A DNA stretch of 64,000 nt from Escherichia coli. Its GTDB lineage: Bacteria > Pseudomonadota > Gammaproteobacteria > Enterobacterales > Enterobacteriaceae. Below the pieces are notes generated by a model, which saw only the letters and a program-made list of their open reading frames with translations, searched no databases and was not told the DNA's origin. Below, in pieces: positions 4,818 through 64,000 of this stretch. Location: assembly GCF_051903065.1 (NCBI RefSeq), contig NZ_CP178439.1, one strand, 5' to 3'. Each line of letters opens with the position of its first letter. Position 1 is the stretch's first letter. Position numbers and translations under genes: made by a program.

Positions 4818-4938
4818 TATGGGAAAAGTTACTTTGCCTGCTCTGCTTGGGGCCACCGTGATTGGTTTTGTCGTATTTGCTTTAACCAGCTTTTACTACA
4901 GGTCAGAATATATACCAAAAAGGGGTAATGACTCCAAC

Positions 4939-5442
4939 TTATTGATAGTGTTTTATGTTCAGATAATGCCCGATGACTTTGTCATGCAGCTCCACCGATT
5001 TTGAGAACGACAGCGACTTCCGTCCCAGCCGTGCCAGGTGCTGCCTCAGATTCAGGTTATGCCGCTCAATTCGCTGCGTATATCGCTTGCTGATTACGTG
5101 CAGCTTTCCCTTCAGGCGGGATTCATACAGCGGCCAGCCATCCGTCATCCATATCACCACGTCAAAGGGTGACAGCAGGCTCATAAGACGCCCCAGCGTC
5201 GCCATAGTGCGTTCACCGAATACGTGCGCAACAACCGTCTTCCGGAGCCTGTCATACGCGTAAAACAGCCAGCGCTGGCGCGATTTAGCCCCGACATAGC
5301 CCCACTGTTCGTCCATTTCCGCGCAGACGATGACGTCACTGCCCGGCTGTATGCGCGAGGTTACCGACTGCGGCCTGAGTTTTTTAAGTGACGTAAAATC
5401 GTGTTGAGGCCAACGCCCATAATGCGGGCTGTTGCCCGGCAT
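4939..5442 (-). CDS. insB: IS1 InsB (normally made as an InsAB fusion by frameshifting)
   Basis: 167-aa [25 protein letters not shown] matches IS1 InsB as I remember it. Confidence 0.85.
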
Positions 5443-5636
5443 CCAACGCCATTCATGGCCATATCAATGATTTTCTGGTGCGTACCGGGTTGAGAAGCGG
5501 TGTAAGTGAACTGCAGTTGCCATGTTTTACGGCAGTGAGAGCAGAGATAGCGCTGATGTCCGGCGGTGCTTTTGCCGTTACGCACCACCCCGTCAGTAGC
5601 TGAACAGGAGGGACAGCTGATAGAAACAGAAGCCAC
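5361..5636 (-). CDS. insA: IS1 InsA
   Basis: 91-aa [42 protein letters not shown] matches IS1 InsA as I remember it. Confidence 0.9.
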
Positions 5637-6033
5637 TGGAGCACCTCAAAAACACCATCATACACTAAATCAGTAAGTTGGCAGCATCACCCAAAAAGGA
5701 GTGTATTAATCGTTCCGGACGCACCCATTAGTATCGAAGATGGCAGTAACGCTTTTCCCGTTCAGACAGTAATAATGAACGATCCAACTCTTATTGATAA
5801 ATTTGTAGGAGAGGACAATATTAATGAGGAGAATGCTTTTGACTATCACAAAAGTAACGTTTTGGAACCTAATTACAAACATGAAATATCTAGAACGAGC
5901 CAGATAGATAAAGCTGAAATGAATCATCCATCTGTTCGTGAAAACTGGGCCAGAGCAGGTGATCCCTATATCGTTCCTCAGATGTCTGACAGCGAACGAA
6001 ATCTAAAAATTAAACGATTCCAGAAACCTACAA

Positions 6034-12829: not shown

Positions 12830-15800
12830 CTTTTAACTTATTTAACCCCCTTTATCGCCAATCTGTGATTTTCTAATGTTAGCCTACAGTTCTAGGGCCC
12901 TTGCTCCCATGATGCGAATCCTTCCACCTAATAAAGATTAACGCCTCATTCCTGTATGCCGGTCTTACGACGCCAGTGCTCGGGCTATTTTCGGTCCTAA
13001 CAAGACCTGGCGAGAGATTTAATCAGGGCGTGGTGTGACTGAGCAGCAGCTGGGGCACTGTTATCCGCTTGCAGATTTAACCCCCTTAATCGCCAAACTG
13101 GGGTACTGTCCTGATGCTGGCCTTCAGTTCTGGGCTGGGTGGCTATCACTTCCTCCCATAATGCGAAATGTAACTGCTGATACAGATTAACGTCATATTC
13201 CTGCGTGCCGGTCTGCCAACACCAGTGCACGGGCTTTTTTCGGTCATCACATTACCGGGCAGGAGATTTTATCAGGGCGTGGTGTGACTGAGCAGAAGCT
13301 GGGGCACTGTCAGCAGCTTGCAGATTTAACCCCCTTAATCGCCACACTGGGATTCTGGTCTGATATTGACCTTCCGTTCTGGGCGGGGTTCGGTTTGCTA
13401 ACACTTACTCCCATGATACGAAATGTGCCTGCTGATACAGATTAAAATCACATTACTGCATACCGGTCTGCCGACACCGGTGCATGGGCGATTTCCGACG
13501 ATCTCAAGAACATATGGGAGATTATATCAGGGAGAGTAGTATGCCTGAGCAGCATCTGAAGGCACTGTCAGCCGCTGTCAGATTTAACCCCCTTAATCGC
13601 CAAACTGGTGTTCTGTCCTCATGCAGGCCTTCAGTTCTGAGCTGGGTTGCTATCACTTGCTCCCATAATGCGAAATGTACCTGCTGATACAAATTAACGT
13701 CGTATTCCTGTATGCCGGTCTGCCGACACCAGTGCTCGGGCTATTTTCGGTCCTAACAAGACCTGGCGAGAGATTTAATCAGGGCGTGGTGTGACTGAGC
13801 AGCAGCTGGGGCACTGTTATCCGCTTGCAGATTTAACCCCCTTAATCGCCAAACTGGGGTACTGTCCTGATGCTGGCCTTCAGTTCTGGGCTGGGTGGCT
13901 ATCACTTCCTCCCATAATGCGAAATGTAACTGCTGATACAGATTAACGTCATATTCCTGCGTGCCGGTCTGCCAACACCAGTGCACGGGCTTTTTTCGGT
14001 CATCACATTACCGGGCAGGAGATTTTATCAGGGCGTGGTGTGACTGAGCAGAAGCTGGGGCACTGTCAGCAGCTTGCAGATTTAACCCCCTTAATCGCCA
14101 CACTGGGATTCTGGTCTGATATTGACCTTCCGTTCTGGGCGGGGTTCGGTTTGCTAACACTTACTCCCATGATACGAAATGTGCCTGCTGATACAGATTA
14201 AAATCACATTACTGCATACCGGTCTGCCGACACCGGTGCATGGGCGATTTCCGACGATCTCAAGAACATATGGGAGATTATATCAGGGAGAGTAGTATGC
14301 CTGAGCAGCATCTGAAGGCACTGTCAGCCGCTGTCAGATTTAACCCCCTTAATCGCCAAACTGGTGTTCTGTCCTCATGCAGGCCTTCAGTTCTGAGCTG
14401 GGTTGCTATCACTTGCTCCCATAATGCGAAATGTACCTGCTGATACAAATTAACGTCGTATTCCTGTATGCCGGTCTGCCGACACCAGTGCTCGGGCTAT
14501 TTTCGGTCCTAACAAGACCTGGCGAGAGATTTAATCAGGGCGTGGTGTGACTGAGCAGCAGCTGGGGCACTGTTATCCGCTTGCAGATTTAACCCCCTTA
14601 ATCGCCACACTGGGGTTCAGTCCTGATAGTGTCCTTCCGTCCTGGGCTCGGTTGCTAACACTTGCTCCCATTGCGCCTGCTGATACAGATTAAAGTCACA
14701 TTACTGCATACCGATCTGCCGACTCCGGTGCATGGCTTTTTCCGATAATCACAAGGACGGACGGGTGATTTTATCTTTGCATAGTATGTCTGAGCAGCAT
14801 CAGAAGGCTCTGTCAGCCACTGGCAGATTTAACCCCCTTAATCTCCAAACTGGGATCAGTCCTGATAGTGTCCTTCCGTCCTGGGCAGGGTTGCTAACAC
14901 TTGCTCCCATGATACGAAATGCGCCAGCTGATACAGATTAACGTCTCATTACTCCATGCCGGTCTGCCGAAACTGGTGCATAGCTTTTTTCGATATTCGC
15001 ATGAACAGACGCTTGATTTTTTCAGGTTGTAATATACCTGAGCAGCATCTGAAGGCACTTTCAGTCTCTGTCAGATTTAACCCCCTTAATCGCCAATCTG
15101 GGATTTTCTGATGTTAACCTACAGTTCAAGGCCCTTGCTCCCATGATGCGAACCTTGCAACCTGATAAAGATTTAAGCCTCATTCCTGTATGCCGGTCTT
15201 ACGACTCTAGTGCACGGGGACTATTTTCGGTCATAATAAGACCTGGCGGGAGATTTAATCAGGCGTGGTGTGACTGAGCAGAAGCTGGGGCACTGTCAGC
15301 CGCTGGCAGATTAAAACCCTTTATTCGCCATCTCAAGACGTCATTATGGGTAGTCCTTTTAACTTTCTAAGGACCATTAAGCTTAAACTCCGTTTAGAGA
15401 ATGACGTAAGATTTAGGCTAAGCAGGTTAAGTGATCCCCGCTCCCGGGTTGAACACTTTATTCATCGTACGAGCGAAAGATTGTCCTTCGGGAAATATTT
15501 CTTATACACCGCTCGGGCACTTACAGCCACTGGCGGATTTAACCCCCTTAATCGCCAAACTGGGGTACTGTCCTGATGCTGGCCTTCAGTTCTGGGCTGG
15601 GTGGCTATCACTTGCTCCCCTAATGCGAAATGTGTCTGTTGATACAGATTAACGTCATTTTCCTGCGTGCCGGTCTGCCGACACCAGTGCACGGCCTTTT
15701 TTCGGTCATTACATTACCGGGCAGGAGATTTTATCAGGGCGTGGTGTTACTGAGCAGGAGCTGGGGCACTATCAGCAGCTTGCATATTTAACTCCCTTAA

Positions 15801-16410
15801 TCGCCAAACTGGTGTTCTGTCCTCATGCTGGCCTTCAGTTCTGGGCTGGGTTGCTATCTCTTGCTCCCATAATGCGAAATGTATCTGCTGATACAGATTA
15901 ACGTCATATTCCTGTATGCCGGTCTGCCGACACCAGTGCTTGGGCTATTTTCGGTCATAACAAGACCTGGCGAGAGATTTACTCAGGGCGTGGTGTGACT
16001 GAGCAGCAGCTGGGGCACTGTCATCCGCTTGCAAATTTAACCCCCTTAATCGCCAAACTTGGGTTTTGTCCTGATGCTGGCCTTCCGTTCTGGGCGGGGT
16101 TGCTATCACTTGCTCCCATCATGCGAAAAGTGCCTGCTGATACAGATTAACGTCATATTCCTTCATGCCGGTCTGCCGACACAAATGCACGGGCTTTTTT
16201 CGGTCCTTACAATACCGGGCAGGAGATTTAATCAGGGCGTGGTGTGACTGAGCAGCAGCTAGGACACTGTCAGCCGCTGGCAGATTTAACCCCCTTAATC
16301 GCCACACTGGGGTTGCCTCCTGAAGTTGGGTTTCAGTTCTGGGCTAGGTTGCTAACTCTGCTCCCATAATTCGTAGTGGGCCTACTCAAGAGATTAACAC
16401 CTCATATCTT
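12830..16410. repeat. Tandem array of about 15 units of about 249 bp, including a near-identical 756-bp (three-unit) duplication
   Basis: Anchor CAGATTTAACCCCCTTAATCGCCA recurs at about 12836, 13072, 13321, 13579, 13828, 14077, 14335, 14584, 14824, 15072, 15306, 15534, 15782, 16032 and 16281; track ORF pairs 12997..13230 / 13753..13986 and 13484..13687 / 14240..14443 are identical. Confidence 0.9.
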
Positions 16411-41315: not shown

Positions 41316-41375
41316 CATTAAACCCACCCTAAAGGGGAGAAATCCCTTCATGGGATTTCTCCTTTTGGAGTCCCC

Positions 41376-42353: not shown

Positions 42354-42410
42354 AATGCCACTGGCAAACATCTGCCAGAGGGCGGTGTTTGCATTTTACC
42401 GGAGTTAAAA

Positions 42411-43469: not shown

Positions 43470-43837
43470 ATGGGATTTGTTATGAAACCTCTGATATTTG
43501 TATCTCAGAGTTATCCCATCTTGAATTTAGTGCGTTTTTAAGTACGGATGGTGCTGCTACCATTGCTATAGCAAAAAACGGAACTAATTTTACTGGACTT
43601 ATGCAACTGAATAACGACTATTCTTTATTGTTTTATCATGATGGTAAAATAAATATGGAAGGTCTGATTAAACAAATGGAATTAAAAGGTTATATGTATC
43701 AGGGAGCAATGGGCAATGATGATGTTGTTGCTGAGTTTCCCGGTATTCTTTTAATTTCACCAGAGTAGCTTTAATATCAACCCTATCGGGAAATCTTTCC
43801 CGTTGGGGAGGGTTTCCCCTTTTTTTTGGAGAAACCC

Positions 43838-44965: not shown

Positions 44966-45042
44966 CTGTTTGCTTTATTAAAAACCCCAGATGGGTACTT
45001 CACCATCTGGGTGAGTACCCCTTTTTTATAAAGAGGTATTCT

Positions 45043-52438: not shown

Positions 52439-53357
52439 TCTAACCCATCCGGGAACCTGCTTCCCGGTGGGAAGCACTTCCTTTTTAGTCATGAGGTAGT
52501 GTAAATGTTTAAAGAATCTGACCACGTGGAATTTGTTAGTGCCTTTCTTTATCAAAATTTAGGCCTTAATGTTTCCGCTGACGATATAACCGTTCAATTA
52601 TCTGATACTTCGTTCGACAAAGTAACCTTTGATTACGATGTAGATATCGATAATTTAAATTGTATGTTGGATCTCTACATATCTGAGCTAATAAAGCACA
52701 ACGCATCTTACTCCGATTCTATTCTTTTGAAACAAAAAATAATTTATTTTCTTGGAGTATTTAAGAATTTCGGATTTTTTACGTTTGATATTCGCGGATA
52801 TAGTAATACTTTAAGCCCAGTTAAAGTTATTGATATTGTTTCAATGATTATTAATGACTGTGAAGAGTTATCTAAAGCTAATTCTTCTACTGATGCTATA
52901 AGAAATCTTTATCTCGATAAAATGAAGGTGGATGGGAAAGTGTTAGTTGCGAAATTTGCACTTAAACAGTTTTTTCATTCCGACTTTGGTGACTTTATCT
53001 CATTTGTCGAGAAAAGAATTACAGATTGTCTTAATGAAACTTTAAGGATTATCAAAGCTGTTGAACATGGCTTTGTACGTGTAGGGCAGCATAAGATTAA
53101 TCGCCGTATTAATGATGACTTAAAGTTATGCATTGATTTCAATACTGATGATTATCCGGCAAATATGCCAGATATATATATTAAGTTTAACGATACATTT
53201 GATGGGAACGGGGCGTTATATTGTGACAATGATGCCCTCATATCCCTCTATACCGATGTTGCTTCAATTATCAATGTGCCGGTGATGATGGAAGTAAGAT
53301 TGATCAATAAAAGAGGGCGTGTTGTCTGTGATTCTTCGCATTCAACTTACGTATCTC

Positions 53358-54414
53358 GGCTTTGTTGAATAAATCGAACTTTTGCTGAGTTGAAGGATCA
53401 GATCACGTATCTTCCCGACAACGCAGACCGTTCCGTGGCAAAGCAAAAGTTCAAAATCACCAACTGGCCCACCTACAATAAAGCCCTCATCAACCGTGGC
53501 TCCATAACTTTCTGGCTGGATGATGAAGCTATTCAGGCCTGGTATGAGTCAGCAACACCTTCTTCACGAGGCAGACCTCAGCGCTATTCTGACCTTGCCA
53601 TCACGACTGTGCTGGTCATTAAACGCGTATTCAGGCTGACCCTGCGCGCTGCGCAGGGCTTTATTGATTCCATTTTTTCTCTGATGAACGTTCCGCTACG
53701 CTGCCCGGATTACAGCTGTGTCAGCAGGCGGGCAAAGTCGGTTAATGTCAGTTTCAAAACGCCCACCCGGGGTGAAATCGCACACCTGGTAATTGATTCC
53801 ACCGGGCTGAAGGTCTTCGGTGAAGGCGAGTGGAAAGTCAAAAAGCATGGCCAGGAACGCCGCCGTATCTGGCGTAAGCTGCATCTCGCCGTTGACAGTA
53901 AAACACATGAAATCATCTGCGCTGACCTGTCGCTGAACAACGTTACGGACTCAGAGGCCTTCCCCGGGTTAATCCGGCAAACCCACCGGAAAATCAGGTC
54001 AGCCGCCGCCGATGGCGCTTACGATACCCGGCTATGTCACGATGAACTGCGGCGTAAGAAAATCAGCGCGCTTATCCCTCCCCGAAAAGGTGCGGGTTAC
54101 TGGCCCGGTGAATATGCAGACCGTAACCGTGCAGTGGCTAATCAGCGAATGACCGGGAGTAATGCGCGGTGGAAATGGACAACAGATTACAACCGTCGCT
54201 CGATAGCGGAAACGGCGATGTACCGGGTAAAACAGCTGTTCGGGGGTTCACTGACACTGCGTGACTACGATGGTCAGGTTGCAGAGGCTATGGCCCTGGT
54301 ACGAGCGCTGAACAAAATGACGAAAGCAGGTATGCCTGAAAGCGTGCGTATTGCCTGAAAACACAACCCGCTACGGGGGAGACTTACCCGAAATCTGATT
54401 TATTCAACAAAGCC
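53358..54414 (+). mobile_element. IS903-like insertion sequence (IS5 family), complete, 1057 bp
   Basis: 18-bp inverted repeats GGCTTTGTTGAATAAATC at 53358 and GATTTATTCAACAAAGCC ending 54414; perfect 9-bp direct repeat ACGTATCTC at 53349-53357 and 54415-54423. Confidence 0.9.
53435..54358 (+). CDS. tnpA: IS903 transposase
   Basis: VAKQKFKITNWPTYNKALINRGSITFWLDDEAIQAWY matches the IS903/IS102 transposase as I remember it; GTG start gives 307 aa. Confidence 0.85.
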   Translation: MAKQKFKITNWPTYNKALINRGSITFWLDDEAIQAWYESATPSSRGRPQRYSDLAITTVLVIKRVFRLTLRAAQGFIDSIFSLMNVPLRCPDYSCVSRRAKSVNVSFKTPTRGEIAHLVIDSTGLKVFGEGEWKVKKHGQERRRIWRKLHLAVDSKTHEIICADLSLNNVTDSEAFPGLIRQTHRKIRSAAADGAYDTRLCHDELRRKKISALIPPRKGAGYWPGEYADRNRAVANQRMTGSNARWKWTTDYNRRSIAETAMYRVKQLFGGSLTLRDYDGQVAEAMALVRALNKMTKAGMPESVRIA

Positions 54415-54680
54415 ACGTATCTCTCGAAAGTAATGACCGATACAGAGTAACTGATCGCACATTACTAATAACTGAAGCTTTTGACGATTTTCGTAACGCG
54501 TCTCAATGATCCTTTTGCTTCAGTCCAAAAAAGTAACTTTGGTTGGCTGAAGACACTTGTCTATGACAATGTAAAATCTGTCGCTGGCATCTTCTTTTAG
54601 CTTAACCAAATTTTTATCTAACCCAGTGGGGAAGTCGCTTCCCTTCTGGGGCACTTCCTCTCAAATTCGAGGTAGTGTAT

Positions 54681-56818: not shown

Positions 56819-57076
56819 ATGAGTAGAACCGTTTCACAAAGTGTCACAGAAGATTGTCTTTTTGATACCCGCACACAAGTCAGATTACAACTAAGTCGAA
56901 GCGTTCATAAAACGCTGGCATCTGCTAAAGAAATTTTACAGGGAAGGGGGGTTGATTCGGTCTCTATTGAAGATCTTGTGCGAGCCTGTCTTGAAGAGAA
57001 CCAGCCAATTGATCTCGCCTCACTTTACCTTGAAAATCTCTTAAAACAGAAAGGTACCAGCATTTGCGATTTTTAG
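56819..57076 (+). CDS. Hypothetical small protein
   Basis: 85-aa ORF 8 bp after the preceding stop. Confidence 0.4.
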   Translation: MSRTVSQSVTEDCLFDTRTQVRLQLSRSVHKTLASAKEILQGRGVDSVSIEDLVRACLEENQPIDLASLYLENLLKQKGTSICDF

Positions 57077-57149
57077 TGTTTTCAAACCTATTAGATAAAA
57101 TGCCGGTTGTGTTTATATAACATCAATAATTTCATGCAACAGGTAAAAC

Positions 57150-57686
57150 ATGAGTACTCAAAAGCAACTTTCCAGAACAACCGGCACTGAACGTATGTTT
57201 AAGGAAGAGCTGGCGTTATCCTTAATTTGTTGGGTTTTCACCAGTCCATTTACCAACTGGACCGATAAAGTCTTCAGTGGTATTGAAGTTCCGTCTGAAG
57301 GACCGTCAACATTACTGGGTGAGGCTGAAAAATTCTTTCGTTTTGTCGTTAATGAAGAAGGCTACGACGCAGGAAGGGCTGCTCTTGGTCTTGACCTATG
57401 TTGTTTTTCACTTCCGTCGTGTTTGTTCCCGGACGCTGCCCTGTCTGAGGAAGAGGTTATGAGTAAGTTAACCGGAGAAGTTATCCATGGGATTCTTCTT
57501 TCCTTACCTGAATTTATTGATATGCCAGAAGTGCTCGCTTACCAGGTCAGGGATGAAATTCTTGCTTTTAACACTCGCTGTGGAGACGGGATCTTTCATG
57601 GTTGGAACACGGCTTCAGAATTGTGGAAGTTTGAAATCTTTCCCCGCACCACCATCATGATGCAGCATACTTCGGCAATACATTAA
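57150..57686 (+). CDS. Hypothetical protein
   Basis: 178-aa ORF. Confidence 0.45.
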   Translation: MSTQKQLSRTTGTERMFKEELALSLICWVFTSPFTNWTDKVFSGIEVPSEGPSTLLGEAEKFFRFVVNEEGYDAGRAALGLDLCCFSLPSCLFPDAALSEEEVMSKLTGEVIHGILLSLPEFIDMPEVLAYQVRDEILAFNTRCGDGIFHGWNTASELWKFEIFPRTTIMMQHTSAIH

Positions 57687-57702
57687 AATTAGGCGGGGCA
57701 GA

Positions 57703-58149
57703 ATGCATAAAAAACTTTTTCTTCTCGAATGGAAACCCTGTCAGAGCCGCGTATGGGCCGGTTGGATGGCCCTGTGGTTGACTATCAGTTTTCTGATGTT
57801 ATCTGCCTTGCTTATGACAGATCATCTCCTGAACAAAGTCATCCTGCCGCCAACATGGTTGTTGATCTGGTTTTCGCCAATGCTGGGGTTTTTGATAAAA
57901 GTTCGCGTCGTCGAAACTCAACATTTCCTGGAGCATGACCTCTGTGTTGCAGGTTTCTCTTTTTACCGCTGGAAGAGGTTAGTTTCTCCCGGGCTTTGGT
58001 CAGTTGACTGTATAAATGGTCGTTTTCGCCTCAATCGGATCACCCAGGTGGGTAAGACTATCCACTATCCATGGCGTCTCCATTATCATCCTTTGTTCAT
58101 GAGCCCTATCGAACATAAATCGCATGCTGTGAAAGCTGTTTCAAAATGA
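57703..58149 (+). CDS. Hypothetical membrane protein
   Basis: 148 aa with two hydrophobic helices. Confidence 0.45.
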   Translation: MHKKLFLLEWKPCQSRVWAGWMALWLTISFLMLSALLMTDHLLNKVILPPTWLLIWFSPMLGFLIKVRVVETQHFLEHDLCVAGFSFYRWKRLVSPGLWSVDCINGRFRLNRITQVGKTIHYPWRLHYHPLFMSPIEHKSHAVKAVSK

Positions 58150-58221
58150 CTTCTTTAGAGGTTTACATGACATTTATGTTCTGCAAGGTCAGCCAGGGCA
58201 GCAAAATTGATTTGAAATAAC

Positions 58222-59202
58222 ATGAGCCTGGAGAAACGTATGAGTTATGACGATTTGCCCTATTTTCGTGACCAGATTCTGGAACGTATCGACTCGCTTA
58301 AGTGTTTTCTTTCGAACACCCCCCCGCTGATGGCAAACCTGATGACTGTCTCCACCGTATCTCGAACAGAAGAGCGACTGAAGCAGGTTAAACCCATCAG
58401 GGTTAGTGTTAAAGACGATGCTTCGGTTGAGGAAATTATTCAGGCACTTACTGACATCTGTGTGGATGACATAGAGTCATTAAGTCATGATTCCACCAAA
58501 GTGACCACTAAATACCCGGGTCTTATCATTGTCCCAGAAAGAGCAGATCTTCTCGAAAGCTTGATCACATCTATAAATGAAGCAAAAAATGATTTTGCTG
58601 CGGCAATGAGGCGTATCGATAATAAAAAGAATGTCCGTTTTGATAAAGTGCACAAGAAGCTCCCGGGCCTTGTCGCTATGCACTCAACAAGAAATGTCCT
58701 TTTCATCAAGTCCCAGCTTAAAAAAGTTACTTTTTCATGGCGGCTAAACCGAAACCAGGAAGTTAAAACAGCAGAGCAACTTGTGAGTTTGTTGGAGCGC
58801 AGGAGAGCCTCAGAAGTAAAAAATGTAGCAACTACCAATTTGAATGTCGTGTCTAATATCGATAAGGCTTTACACCGTCTTGAATTTCACCCACTGAAGC
58901 AGGGCGAATCTTATCGCCTTTGTCGAACTAACTCTTTCCCTGTTCCGATTGCTCACATTTTTGCATTTAGGCCTGAAGGGCAGGAACGAAACGGGAATAA
59001 ATATGCTGAGACTGATTATTCAGTAGTAAAAGCATCCTTGCCCATTTTCGCAGCAGGCAACATACCTCAATTAAAAACGCTCTCTGACTGGGCTCCTGAA
59101 AACAGCCAGGGCCCGTCCAACCAACGGAAGCTGAGCCTGAAATATACAGAACTCGTGCCGGGGGCTGAGCTGGGCATTTTCATTGTCAGCCCCGAAAATT
59201 AA
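58222..59202 (+). CDS. tus: Tus-like replication-terminus-binding protein
   Basis: RFDKVHKKLPGLVAMHSTRNVL aligns with the E. coli Tus segment [21 protein letters not shown] as I remember it; 326 aa against about 309 for Tus. Confidence 0.55.
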   Translation: MSLEKRMSYDDLPYFRDQILERIDSLKCFLSNTPPLMANLMTVSTVSRTEERLKQVKPIRVSVKDDASVEEIIQALTDICVDDIESLSHDSTKVTTKYPGLIIVPERADLLESLITSINEAKNDFAAAMRRIDNKKNVRFDKVHKKLPGLVAMHSTRNVLFIKSQLKKVTFSWRLNRNQEVKTAEQLVSLLERRRASEVKNVATTNLNVVSNIDKALHRLEFHPLKQGESYRLCRTNSFPVPIAHIFAFRPEGQERNGNKYAETDYSVVKASLPIFAAGNIPQLKTLSDWAPENSQGPSNQRKLSLKYTELVPGAELGIFIVSPEN

Positions 59203-59211
59203 GGAACAACA

Positions 59212-60117
59212 ATGCAATGGATTTCCACAGCCAGCCAGAAAATCGATGAGCGTCTCTATCGTGTCTGTGTCTGGGTAAAAAAATATCACGCTGATGCGAT
59301 TAACCGCGTTGTGCTTACCGTTGATCTAAGTAAAGCCCGACATGACCCTGACGAGGACCAGGTAAGAGCAGAGCTGCTGTGCGGCCATTATTTTTTGCTT
59401 CGTAAGGAAAACGCTTCGAACTCTGCGCCTGACGATCAAAAGTTTGCTTTCCTGCCTGACGGGCGCAATCTGTGTTGGCAGACCGCAACCCCGGTGCTTC
59501 AGCATCTCCTGCTCAATAAAAACGTTCCTGAGTCGCTGAGGTTGCTTACGGACTACATACATATGCGTCTGGCCAGGCTGACAATGGTACCAATGTCCGG
59601 AACCATCATGAACGAGGCTCTGCTGGACAGCATCAGCTGGGTTAAGGTGGATTTGACCTACTTCTGGCAGTACGAACAGCTCAGCTCTCATCTGGGACCC
59701 ATCCAGATAACCCACAAGGCACTAGTACGCTTCGGGCATCTGGCAAAGAATGATGAAAACTCCAGTGCCATAAGAATCCTGCGTCAGCGTCTGTCTTCAG
59801 AATTCTTACAAGAATTTCAGATGGCTGAGGATGAGCTAAAGCGCAAACAGTCGTTGATGGGCACCATGGACGTGAAAATGCTGTTTCATGCTCATTACCC
59901 CAGCCAGAAGATGCTGGTGGCTCGATATAAAAATGGTTGGGTAATGGTGGATTGTTTTCTGTTTCATCATACCAAACCTAAGAAAAAAGCAAAAAACAAA
60001 ACTACTGTGGCTAAGCCTCAACTTAAAGAGACTAAAAGAGAAGGGAGTGAAAATGGAACTGGGCATTATGGTGTGCATCGTGTTGTTACTCTCCGTGGCG
60101 GCGGCGTGGATCAGTAA
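59212..60117 (+). CDS. Hypothetical protein
   Basis: 301-aa ORF 10 bp after the tus-like stop; Lys-rich C-terminus. Confidence 0.5.
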   Translation: MQWISTASQKIDERLYRVCVWVKKYHADAINRVVLTVDLSKARHDPDEDQVRAELLCGHYFLLRKENASNSAPDDQKFAFLPDGRNLCWQTATPVLQHLLLNKNVPESLRLLTDYIHMRLARLTMVPMSGTIMNEALLDSISWVKVDLTYFWQYEQLSSHLGPIQITHKALVRFGHLAKNDENSSAIRILRQRLSSEFLQEFQMAEDELKRKQSLMGTMDVKMLFHAHYPSQKMLVARYKNGWVMVDCFLFHHTKPKKKAKNKTTVAKPQLKETKREGSENGTGHYGVHRVVTLRGGGVDQ

Positions 60118-60397
60118 TAAGACAGTTGATTTGCTCGAAAGATTCTATTTCAAGCGTCCGCTGAGCATGGAGTACGCGGCATGGCTACGTGTAATGTGTG
60201 CAGGCTTGTTATTGGTTTTTATTCAGGTTGCTCCACAATTTACACTTCTGTATACCCTTAAACTTGTCACGCTTATTAATCTTGGAATCCAGACAATGAA
60301 ATTAAATGGCGTGTACAAATATAAAAGAACGGGAATTTTGCCTCCGGGAGGGGCACTCTCTAATCTCACCAGACTTAACCCGTTCAAGAAAAAATAA
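60053..60397 (+). CDS. Hypothetical small membrane protein
   Basis: About 114 aa; ATG at 60053 after RBS AAGGGAG; two hydrophobic helices; overlaps the end of the upstream ORF. Confidence 0.4.
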   Translation: MELGIMVCIVLLLSVAAAWISNKTVDLLERFYFKRPLSMEYAAWLRVMCAGLLLVFIQVAPQFTLLYTLKLVTLINLGIQTMKLNGVYKYKRTGILPPGGALSNLTRLNPFKKK

Positions 60398-60400
60398 AGT

Positions 60401-60420
60401 TATGCGCCCGTGAGGGCGCT
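60401..60420. terminator. Hairpin between convergent genes
   Basis: GCGCCCgtgaGGGCGC inverted repeat. Confidence 0.4.
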
Positions 60421-61603
60421 ATTCATCAAAGGCATTTCGCATAAGCTTGATCATTGCTTTTTTACCAGCTTCAATATTACGAATGTAGCGCATAACCATT
60501 TCTTCATTCGACCAGTTCCCCATTTCCATAATCTGTGGTAGCGAGTAACCTTCAATATTTAGCTGTATCGCTCCGCCTACACGAACGCTGTGCCCTGTCC
60601 AGTAACGAGTTTTAGTCTCATTTGGATAAAGCTCATTCCACATCTCTTTAAATGCTCGTAAAAGGGAATTTTTGCTGAGCATACCGGCATCGTCCACAGT
60701 GTCTTCTTCATCTTCATCGTTCAGAAGACTTTGCTTAGCACGATAGGGTAGGTTATGCCTTTTAAGAAGTTCAGATAGCTCATTCCCCTTACTCCGAAGC
60801 TTCCAGCCGGGTGGCATATAGCCTGTATCATGGAAATTTACGGCCTGGAAAAGGAATTCATCCGGATGACTGTGCTGATCCATTTTCACGAGGTTCATCA
60901 ATCTCAAGAGGCAGTTAGTTAACTGACGTGTCAGCCGGTAGGTAAGAAGTGTACTAATGTTCGTTTTTGTACGGTATACCGTCAGGTTAAATTCACCGGT
61001 CATACTATCCAGAGACAGATCTTTCAGACGTATACGTCGAATTTCGGATGAACGGAGCAGTGTTTCAAAGCCTGTCCAGATCAGGCACAGGTCACGAAGT
61101 TTACGAACTGAGTTTGTAGTACTGCGTAACTTTATCAGAGCCTTGAGATCGCCAATAAGAAAGGGAGTTGCCTGTTTAGTCGTCTTTCGCTTCCGGGCTT
61201 CCGATTGTTTTAAGGCTTCCAGCATGTACCATGCTTCAGACGTAATAATCCCGGGCAGGTTAAGCCCTTTTTTATGGATACTATTTAAGGCCTGAAGACA
61301 GCTGTTTATGCTGCTTCGTGACAATTTGCCTTCAAGATGCCCCATAAACGCAAGCAGAGCGTCCTCAGACACGGGGAGCGAACTTACTGGCCAGTCTGTA
61401 TGCAACCGGGCATTCGCCAGATACCATTCGTTCCATACTCGTAGCCAGTGCAGATAGGTTTTAGCAGTGTTGTATCTCAGATGGGAAAAGTAACGGATCA
61501 AGCGTGAAAGCTGTTTATCATGGTTGCCGAACGTTTCCAGCTGCTGATGCAATTCGCTTTCCGAAAACTGTCTGATCACTGATTGATTCTTCATCCTGCT
61601 CAC
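60419..61603 (-). CDS. Tyrosine site-specific recombinase (phage-integrase / Xer-like family)
   Basis: 394 aa; C-terminal catalytic signature LLRSSEIRR (Arg), HSVRVGGA (His-x-x-Arg) and MRYIRN (Tyr). Confidence 0.8.
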   Translation of the reverse strand: MSRMKNQSVIRQFSESELHQQLETFGNHDKQLSRLIRYFSHLRYNTAKTYLHWLRVWNEWYLANARLHTDWPVSSLPVSEDALLAFMGHLEGKLSRSSINSCLQALNSIHKKGLNLPGIITSEAWYMLEALKQSEARKRKTTKQATPFLIGDLKALIKLRSTTNSVRKLRDLCLIWTGFETLLRSSEIRRIRLKDLSLDSMTGEFNLTVYRTKTNISTLLTYRLTRQLTNCLLRLMNLVKMDQHSHPDEFLFQAVNFHDTGYMPPGWKLRSKGNELSELLKRHNLPYRAKQSLLNDEDEEDTVDDAGMLSKNSLLRAFKEMWNELYPNETKTRYWTGHSVRVGGAIQLNIEGYSLPQIMEMGNWSNEEMVMRYIRNIEAGKKAMIKLMRNAFDE

Positions 61604-61764
61604 CGGGATACACTGGTTTTAATTACAGGTCATTTTAGCACTCATGTACCTGGTTATGAACAGGGTGGAAACAACGAAAAAGGTTGTGAAATCGTTAGGC
61701 TTAAGTGAAAAATGATATTAAGATTATCCCTGGCCAGTTGAGGCCTGTCTAAAGAAGGTTGATT

Positions 61765-61977
61765 ATGTCTGACACAAAGCAGTCTTATTTAATGAAATTC
61801 CGTAAGTGTAGTTCGTTCGAAACGCTCGAAAAAGTATTTGAAAGGTTATGTGAAAAAAACTCGGGTGTCGCCTCTCTTGAAATTTCTGGTGCTTATGATC
61901 ATCGTAAAGCCGAACTGACAATGAAAAAGTTATATGACAAAGTTCCTGCGAGTGTGTGGACCTTTGTTCGCGAGTAA
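61765..61977 (+). CDS. hha: Hha/YmoA-family nucleoid-associated modulator
   Basis: KQSYLMKFRKCSSFETLEKVFE...AYDHRKAELTMKKLYDKVPASVW aligns with Hha/YmoA as I remember them; ATG at 61765 after RBS AAGAAGG. Confidence 0.75.
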   Translation: MSDTKQSYLMKFRKCSSFETLEKVFERLCEKNSGVASLEISGAYDHRKAELTMKKLYDKVPASVWTFVRE

Positions 61978-62184
61978 TTATTAATATTGGCACAACAAAA
62001 AGACTGTGCCTGGATTTGAAAATAGTTTATGCCCCTTTCGGGGCTAAAGGCATTGTAATAGCCTGTCTTTTAAAGTTGTTTATTAAGTTCGGAGAAAAAC
62101 TTTAATCATAAGCCAAGCCCACTGCTAAATACATCCGATATTCTCCTTCATTTTATTAGAAGTGATAAAAGTTACTTTACCTAA

Positions 62185-64000
<1,816 letters not shown>

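Follow-up and report, generated by a model that had tools for sequence, protein, structure and literature searches.

Background

Plasmids R6K and R1/R100 carry Ter sites of the E. coli type and borrow the Tus protein of their host. The concept that they share with the plasmid considered here is polar fork arrest on a plasmid (PMC10331603). The present plasmid, unlike these, brings a divergent Tus of its own and is without such sites. Its tus gene lies in a stretch of 64,000 nucleotides from an Escherichia coli assembly (contig NZ_CP178439.1; the whole stretch is referred to below as the window), within a conserved cassette of an IncHI2 plasmid that also encodes a tyrosine recombinase and an Hha-like protein. 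Plasmid-borne, "mobile" tus genes have been described before, and the chromosomal tus gene was proposed to have been domesticated from them (Galli 2019, PMC6549158). We put at roughly 0.55 the probability that the protein is the "mobile Tus" of the IncHI plasmids, a monomer that would bind asymmetric sites and form a polar fork lock there, in an accessory role.

The residues ascribed to the lock of the E. coli Tus-Ter complex are E47, E49, F140, H144, G149 and R198 (Table 1 of the review PMC10331603). F140, H144 and G149 make up the pocket that grips the flipped C(6) cytosine, and E49 faces the helicase (PMC10331603). A similar case is the chromid of Pseudoalteromonas, a secondary replicon that encodes a Tus homologue and on which no E. 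coli-type Ter could be recognised (Xie 2021, PMC7858055); no Ter site was identified for it, as we found for IncHI. There, tus adjoins ori2, whereas the IncHI2 gene is about 56 kb from the nearest origin.

The IncHI1 plasmid R27 has the orthologous cassette, R0186-R0185-R0184-R0183-R0182, in identical gene order. Genes R0179 to R0186 were deleted singly in R27, and none of these deletions reproduced the instability of a 6.5-kb deletion, which was traced to the incC repeats (Tassinari et al., PMC4853401). R27 lacking the R0183 recombinase is stable in a wild-type host and is lost in xerC, xerD and ftsK-ATPase mutants; the plasmid has two redundant dimer-resolution systems, the R0183 recombinase and the FtsK-dependent XerCD site xrs (10.1101/2024.04.05.588136). 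The R27 Hha protein (R0182) was implicated, together with H-NS, in repressing transfer at 37°C, and both R0182 and R0183 are more expressed at this temperature (PMC7366339). The genes themselves were already known: tus is annotated in RefSeq, in the table of R27 open reading frames (ORFs) and in a paper on an IncHI2 plasmid, and for the recombinase and Hha there is experimental support from work on R27.

The Tus-like protein

The original prediction, made from the letters of the sequence, had placed a Tus-like ORF, a tyrosine recombinase and an Hha-like ORF close to one another, and all three are present (Table 1). Its observations are confirmed, and its interpretation is partly supported.

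Membership of the Tus-like ORF in the Tus family is confirmed by both profile and fold. A profile search could have placed the ORF outside the family; it placed it inside, with a match to Pfam PF05472 at E=6.5e-19 and 68.5 bits (model positions 10-208 of 296), and the precomputed Pfam assignment of all close homologues is likewise PF05472. This match spans the N-terminal two thirds of the model only, and the fold search also recovers the C-terminal domain. For this search, 63 relatives were gathered from 1.8 billion cluster representatives, and 45 of them, E. coli Tus included, were aligned (alignment A3). The AlphaFold (AF2) model built on this alignment has a pLDDT (predicted local confidence) of 93.3 and a pTM (predicted template-modelling score) of 0.87. 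Submitted to Foldseek against the PDB, it gave four matches at E<=0.001, all of them chains of E. coli Tus (1ecr_A, E=2e-19, TM 0.75/0.78), with template-modelling (TM) scores of 0.74-0.78 over about 327 aligned columns and 16% identity. At the level of the model, the ORF is confirmed as a full-length, two-domain protein of the Tus fold, with the beta-sheet cleft between the domains. It shares this fold with chromosomal E. coli Tus (1ECR, 2EWJ, 4XR0) over the full length (TM about 0.76).

At the sequence level, the comparison with the PDB is marginal (phmmer, E=0.08), and it aligns the block RFDKVHKKLPGL with E. coli Tus (1ecr), the same block that the original prediction had recognised as common to the two proteins. 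This block holds the equivalents of all three pocket residues: F140, H144 and G149 of E. coli Tus correspond in A3 to F134, H138 and G143 of the plasmid protein, and are conserved in 36, 40 and 23 of the 45 sequences, respectively. In the same alignment, E49 corresponds to E45, and the equivalents of K89, W172, R232, P238 and P258, around the DNA-binding cleft, are kept; E47 has no conserved equivalent. Most other residues of the sequence-reading beta-strands differ from those of E. coli Tus, so that a different recognition sequence is expected. As judged by this sequence alignment, the C(6)-capture pocket thus appears to be retained, and among the sequence data this is the best argument that the protein may still act as a polar "mousetrap".

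The longest form of the ORF runs from 58222 to 59202 on the plus strand. The true start is likely to be the ATG at 58240 (MSYDDL...) and not 58222: this ATG is preceded by GGAG, is the start chosen by the NCBI annotation pipeline PGAP, and agrees with the N-termini of the R27 and Photorhabdus orthologues. Intact copies of the protein at 99% identity or more occur in 1109 plasmid records, and any match to Tus in 2770.

A conserved cassette on IncHI and related plasmids

As the original prediction had supposed, the gene is plasmid-borne. Positions 57000-63000 are 100% identical to many IncHI2A / MOBH / MPF_F plasmids from Salmonella, E. coli, Enterobacter and Klebsiella, and the window is the first part of an IncHI2 multidrug-resistance plasmid. 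By BLAST, window positions 1-64000 correspond to positions 1-62158 of NZ_CP037959.1 (278,374 bp; the IncHI2 record hereafter) plus two extra insertion sequences (ISs). The gene for the RepHIA initiator is followed by Tra2, the partition genes, a long plus-strand operon of conserved hypothetical genes and then the tus region.

The cassette comprises, in order, tus, ORF X (about 250-300 residues), ORF Y (about 106-114 residues, hydrophobic), a gene for a Cre-like recombinase on the opposite strand, hha and a coiA-like gene. At least six plasmid lineages have it, with Tus identities as low as 25%. These include the IncHI1 plasmids, R27 among them (R0186-R0182); a Citrobacter IncHI1B/IncP plasmid, from which hha is missing; a Photorhabdus contig; the metagenomic lineage L015 (34% Tus identity), where an IncHI-type rep gene and coiA come after hha; a second metagenomic lineage, L021 (27%); and very numerous Klebsiella plasmids of the IncFIB/IncHI1B type (25%). 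The persistence of the gene order where Tus identity has dropped to 25-27% speaks for a function that is maintained. When IncHI2 is compared with R27, the product that has diverged most is Tus, with 59% identity, as against 78% for X, 78% for Y, 64% for the recombinase and 90% for Hha. The two plasmids also differ in other respects: upstream of tus, R27 carries one more small ORF, and its hha is followed by a RepFIA replicon flanked by IS1, while the coiA-like gene of IncHI2 is cut by IS100.

Proposed role of the plasmid Tus and points that weigh against it

The explanation that we favour is that the plasmid Tus would act as a monomer and recognise one asymmetric plasmid site, or a few, with a sequence unlike the E. 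coli GTTGTAAC Ter. Strand separation would trigger a polar lock, stopping a helicase or a replisome that arrives from one side, and this lock would confine the end point of plasmid replication, or prevent over-replication and run-through. Fork arrest at dedicated plasmid sites is an inference. The function of Tus would be accessory and its neighbours would have separate jobs, the recombinase resolving dimers redundantly with the distant XerCD/FtsK xrs, and Hha acting as the partner of H-NS in silencing the transfer genes at 37°C.

Several observations weigh against this explanation, beginning with those that concern the DNA site. In the window, GTTGTAAC occurs twice where 1.7 occurrences are expected, and the degenerate Ter core, with up to two mismatches, 31 times where 30.6 are expected, which is chance level; the original prediction, which had seen no convincing Ter-like 23-mer there, was right in this respect. 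In contrast to E. coli, no GTTGTAAC-type Ter stands beside the plasmid tus, which lies in a multi-gene operon and is not autoregulated by an adjacent TerB; comparison of IncHI2 with IncHI1 gave no conserved TerB-like element just upstream of the gene. A position-specific scoring matrix (PSSM) derived from the ten sites TerA to TerJ was run on the full IncHI2 plasmid and on R27. The whole IncHI2 replicon has one E. coli-type Ter core, AATATTTAAGTTGTAACTAATAT, at 200830-200852 of NZ_CP037959.1, outside the window. Its PSSM score is 20.1, the best score per shuffle ranging from 13.4 to 21.6 in 20 shuffles. Its 13-bp core is identical to that of TerI and TerJ and it is kept in both IncHI2 sub-lineages, but position 6 is a T, not a G, which leaves it without the G-C(6) lock base. 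The Tra1 intergenic region around AATATTTAAGTTGTAACTAATAT is AT-rich, and the oriT-region repeats are about 1.8 kb away. This core probably corresponds to the "potential ter site" of pSTM6-275 referred to in the IncHI2 paper, and the host Tus might bind it. The syntenic intergenic region of R27 is without anything like it, and the scan of R27 with the Ter PSSM gave no match above shuffled controls. The original prediction had expected dedicated fork-arrest sites on the plasmid; the search of the whole replicon, having returned this single core and no cognate site, does not bear this out. The Ter consensus and the ten-site PSSM also gave no match in the tus loci of Photorhabdus, L015 and Klebsiella. 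An all-against-all comparison of IncHI2 and R27 non-coding DNA recovered xrs, iterons, the oriT repeats, the partition repeats, operon hairpins and a palindrome (see below), and no asymmetric multi-copy candidate Ter. The binding site of the IncHI Tus was not identified in these searches, which a divergent Ter might escape.

Other points concern the protein and its place on the replicon. The NCBIfam equivalogs of chromosomal Tus, NF002810 and TIGR02648, give 53.1 bits for a cutoff of 323 and 20.9 bits for a cutoff of 178.3; judged by such scores, the plasmid Tus is a distant, paralogue-like clade and not an orthologue of the resident chromosomal Tus. R198 of E. coli Tus is without a clear equivalent, a valine aligning with it in a region of A3 that is uncertain, and a shortened, 214-residue form of Tus is common in databases (a cluster with 249 member sequences). 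On this plasmid of 278 kb, the gene is located in mid-replichore, some 56 kb away from RepHIA, and not antipodal to the origins. In the IncHI2 record, the RepHIA gene is at position 1, RepHI2 at about 261 kb and tus at 56.4 kb, while the maximum of the cumulative GC skew falls at about 110-115 kb and xrs at 125.6 kb; the layout of origins, skew and tus is equivalent in R27. With tus in mid-replichore, and the skew switch and xrs elsewhere, the fit to a simple antipodal fork trap centred on tus is poor. Lastly, the single deletion of R0186 (tus) in R27 has no stability phenotype (PMC4853401), so that, under laboratory conditions, R27 is stable in E. coli MG1655 without its Tus orthologue; this host retains the chromosomal tus gene.

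Neighbouring genes of the cassette

Table 1. Features of the tus region and copies of the palindrome AAAGTWACTTT (window positions)
Feature	Position	Strand	Basis or remark
Two small ORFs, 178 and 148 residues, upstream of tus and in the same orientation	57150..58149	+	blastp and synteny
Tus-family protein, 320 residues	58240..59202	+	Pfam, AlphaFold, Foldseek; orthologue of R27 R0186
RFDKVHKKLPGL codons, holding F134, H138 and G143	58636..58671	+	phmmer to 1ecr and residue mapping on A3
AAAGTWACTTT copy inside tus (codons KKVTF)	58723..58733		same codons in IncHI2, IncHI1, Citrobacter, Photorhabdus and L015
ORF X, 301 residues, R0185 orthologue	59212..60117	+	78% identical to R27 X
ORF Y, 114 residues, hydrophobic, R0184 orthologue	60053..60397	+	PGAP coding sequence; 78% identical to R27 Y
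Cre-like tyrosine recombinase, 391 residues, R0183 orthologue	60419..61594	-	phmmer, catalytic residues
Conserved non-coding block upstream of the recombinase gene	61600..61690	-	alignments of five or six lineages
Hha/YmoA-family H-NS co-regulator, 70 residues, R0182 orthologue	61765..61977	+	NCBIfam, identities
AAAGTWACTTT copy between hha and coiA	62168-62178
CoiA-like gene, last conserved member of the cassette	62338..62880	+	PGAP; homologue follows hha in L015, the Klebsiella plasmid and L021
AAAGTWACTTT copies, 11 bp each	987, 4825, 7910, 19856, 21930, 24866, 28953, 30136
AAAGTWACTTT copies, 11 bp each	32500, 39023, 39702, 46148, 49893, 54530, 58723, 62168 (the last two being the copies listed above)

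The two small ORFs upstream of tus are matched by the two ORFs upstream of the Klebsiella gene (blastp, E=4e-16 and 4e-5). ORF X directly follows tus in every plasmid lineage examined, and because of this constant position it may be a partner protein of Tus. No match to it was found in Pfam, PADLOC or PHROG. Its AF2 model has a pLDDT of 70, and the fold search matches uncharacterised proteins only, including s073 of the SXT/R391 elements; the members of this widespread fold family are uncharacterised proteins of about 240-260 residues in Vibrio, Marinobacter, Pseudomonas and Providencia. Searches for defence systems and phage families with tus, X, Y and their neighbours returned nothing. A literature lead to "Tus" in the DefensePredictor paper was discarded, the text reading "TUs", for transcriptional units. 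ORF Y is probably a small membrane protein. The coiA-like gene is interrupted by IS100 (62907-64000; transposase from 62907).

ORF Y overlaps the 3' end of X in another frame, and its first 41 nucleotides (60053-60093) are invariant in four lineages. This dual-coding 41-mer was the sole outcome of an ultra-conservation scan of the cassette in these lineages. It is 100% identical in IncHI2, R27, the Citrobacter plasmid and Photorhabdus, compared to 46% invariant columns overall, and corresponds to the overlap of the C-terminus of X with the start of Y, read in two frames. It contains TGTTGTTACT, one base off the E. coli Ter core; as a Ter candidate this sequence was rejected, being single-copy and absent in L015 and Klebsiella.

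Recombinase, dimer resolution and Hha

The F plasmid possesses a dimer-resolution system, ResD/rfsF, and P1 has Cre/loxP. The recombinase of the cassette is Cre-like: phmmer aligns it with the Cre chains of the PDB at E of about 2e-23, with 26% identity. The longest form of its ORF is 60419-61603 on the minus strand, with a probable start at 61594. Its catalytic set is complete, R181, K210, H335, R338, W361 and Y370 corresponding to R173, K201, H289, R292, W315 and Y324 of Cre. It differs from Cre in being about 50 residues longer and in having, instead of a recognisable lox-like site, only a conserved upstream block; no 13-8-13 inverted repeats of the lox type could be recognised near the gene. 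This block (61600-61690) holds a promoter-like element, TTCATA-17-TGnTAAAAT (61660-61632, minus strand, with an upstream TG), followed by CTGTAAWTAAAAMCAGTGTAT, a motif conserved in the 5' leader. The block is a candidate for an operator, a recombination site or both.

The R27 orthologue, R0183 (159617-160798), is 64% identical and has the same synteny. The multimer-resolution role that the original prediction had proposed for the recombinase fits this orthologue, which was shown to be one of the two redundant systems of R27, and by analogy the IncHI2 recombinase may contribute to plasmid dimer resolution. The dif-like site that had been suggested near the gene proved to be elsewhere. The XerCD site xrs of R27 (135820-135847) has a one-mismatch copy at 125571-125598 of NZ_CP037959.1, outside the window, close to the maximum of the GC skew and about 69 kb from tus.

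The longest form of the Hha-like ORF is 61759-61977 on the plus strand, with a probable start at 61765. The protein matches NCBIfam NF008191 at E=2.7e-21; its 75.6 bits fall short of 90, the cutoff for the subfamily. Identity is 50% with E. coli Hha and 90% with the R27 protein, and PF05321 is recorded for the L015 and L021 homologues; on these similarities it is assigned to the Hha/YmoA family. The link to temperature-dependent transfer, made in the original prediction, is supported through the R27 protein.

The palindrome AAAGTWACTTT and other repeats

The 11-bp perfect palindrome AAAGTWACTTT occurs 16 times in the window, where 0.10 occurrences are expected, and none of 100 shuffles reached this number. 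It is often extended to GAAAAGTWACTTTTC. There are 42-43 copies each on R27 and IncHI2, or 46-50 if any central base is allowed; about half are in coding DNA, in several reading frames, and the palindrome is nearly absent from resistance and accessory DNA. Elsewhere, nine copies were found in 50 kb of a Klebsiella IncFIB plasmid and five in the 21-kb Photorhabdus locus, and none in 50 kb of the IncA plasmid pRA1 or in L021 (13 kb). It was considered as a site for Tus and found unlikely to be one, being a symmetric dyad with a flipping central base and missing from L021, which has the cassette. When the same de novo screen was applied to pRA1, it picked TTCACATGTGAA, the core of the scattered parS that was established by experiment for the KorB-domain ParB of IncA/IncC plasmids (PMC10954446). 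By analogy, AAAGTWACTTT may be a multi-copy site for a dimeric backbone protein; its distribution resembles that of the parS/KorB-type sites scattered over IncC and IncP plasmids. When its sequence was searched for in full texts, the titles of the 20 matches listed, of 121, all looked unrelated, and no description of the motif was found in the literature searched.

Other repeats were observed. Beside mobI, the presumed oriT region contains 5-6 copies of AAAAGTGACCCTATG, in both orientations (NZ_CP037959.1 202595-202760; R27 108431-108580), and the half-site AAAAGTGAC of these repeats resembles half of the plasmid-wide palindrome. Upstream of parA/parB, a tandem-repeat array with a period of about 250 bp (window about 12900-16400) has ATTTAACCCCCTTAATCGCCA in each unit. 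The same 21-mer recurs about 52 bp apart at 25.6-26.7 kb of R27, in the repeat region upstream of parA, and the array is probably a partition centromere or an incompatibility repeat. G+C-rich inverted repeats occupy gaps of the plus-strand operon, which encodes an AAA ATPase, DUF3150, VWA and toprim proteins and others (window about 41324-41362, 42355-42406, 43779-43818, 44985-45020 and 54621-54659, converted from record coordinates). Although non-coding, these elements show 89-100% conservation with R27, and they may be RNA-stability, attenuator or single-strand DNA elements. As for the two extra insertions of the window, neither has a counterpart in NZ_CP037959.1: one is an IS1 (4924-5691), of which the plasmid has another copy with 99% identity, and the other an IS5-like element (53355-54414; 88% identity).

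Alternative explanations

In L015, hha is directly followed by an IncHI-type Rep gene, at a distance of about 3.6 kb from tus, and the RepFIA replicon of R27 is about 4.4 kb away from tus. Tus could accordingly be imagined to block one of the forks leaving a nearby plasmid origin, resulting in unidirectional theta replication and not in a distal terminus. The terRL and terRR sites of R1 do enforce unidirectional replication (PMC10331603), and most Pseudoalteromonas chromids, in which tus adjoins ori2, replicate unidirectionally (PMC6549158, PMC7858055), a parallel of position only. We nevertheless consider this unlikely, as the IncHI2, Photorhabdus, L021 and Klebsiella plasmids have no rep gene beside the cassette, the R27 RepFIA is located between IS1 copies and so looks acquired, and no Ter-like site was found between tus and the adjacent rep genes. 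Quite unlikely is the proposal that the cassette is a self-contained plasmid "terminus module", with a non-canonical Ter inside or beside it and termination coupled to dimer resolution. Tus, perhaps with X and Y, may then arrest forks, the end of replication falling beside the recombinase site; the 61600-61690 block and 60053-60093 with TGTTGTTACT would be the candidate Ter sites, and the whole would parallel the way in which the chromosomal Ter/dif arrangement is thought to work. We give little credence to a role in the processing of DNA during conjugation, where Tus would halt either a helicase or rolling-circle replacement synthesis in the vicinity of oriT. In its favour are the position of the sole E. 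coli-type Ter core of IncHI2 in Tra1, close to the oriT-region repeats, the grouping of the "potential ter site" with oriT and tus in the IncHI2 paper, the presence of the cassette on MOBH/MPF_F plasmids and the occurrence of SXT/R391 s073 among the fold relatives of ORF X. However, R27 does not have the Tra1 core, a Klebsiella plasmid that is non-mobilizable and tra-depleted still carries the cassette, and the R27 hha and recombinase genes are more expressed at 37°C, which is the non-permissive temperature (tus is not in that table; PMC7366339).

The remaining explanations dispense with fork arrest. Tus might have become an ordinary DNA-binding regulator or roadblock, possibly acting on AAAGTWACTTT. 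This palindrome is abundant on IncHI plasmids, has a copy inside tus at the same codons in five lineages, and has six contiguous bases, GTAACT, in common with the E. coli Ter core; the deletion of tus without phenotype is also compatible with such a function. The idea is improbable, since a perfect dyad whose central base flips between lineages at an orthologous position speaks for a symmetric dimer and not for a monomeric, asymmetric Tus. Moreover, L021 has the cassette and no copy of the motif in 13 kb, the analogous scattered palindrome of IncA/IncC is a proven parS (PMC10954446), and the conserved lock-pocket residues argue for a retained mousetrap. That tus is a decaying relic with no current function is very hard to credit: the lack of a stability phenotype on deletion, the frequency of shortened variants and the rate of evolution of the gene, the fastest in the cassette (59% vs 64-90% for its neighbours), would fit with decay, but the ORF is full-length, its fold is predicted with confidence, and the key residues and the synteny are kept in lineages that have diverged to 25% identity.

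Significance

IncHI2 and related large plasmids have a major part in carrying multidrug resistance, and Tus homologues are encoded in more than 2,700 plasmid records. Should the "terminus module" explanation be true, the cassette would represent the ancestral function of Tus, prior to its domestication. More generally, the cognate site of the plasmid Tus would show what role the protein had before it was domesticated by the chromosome, and might expose a maintenance function of these plasmids that can be targeted.

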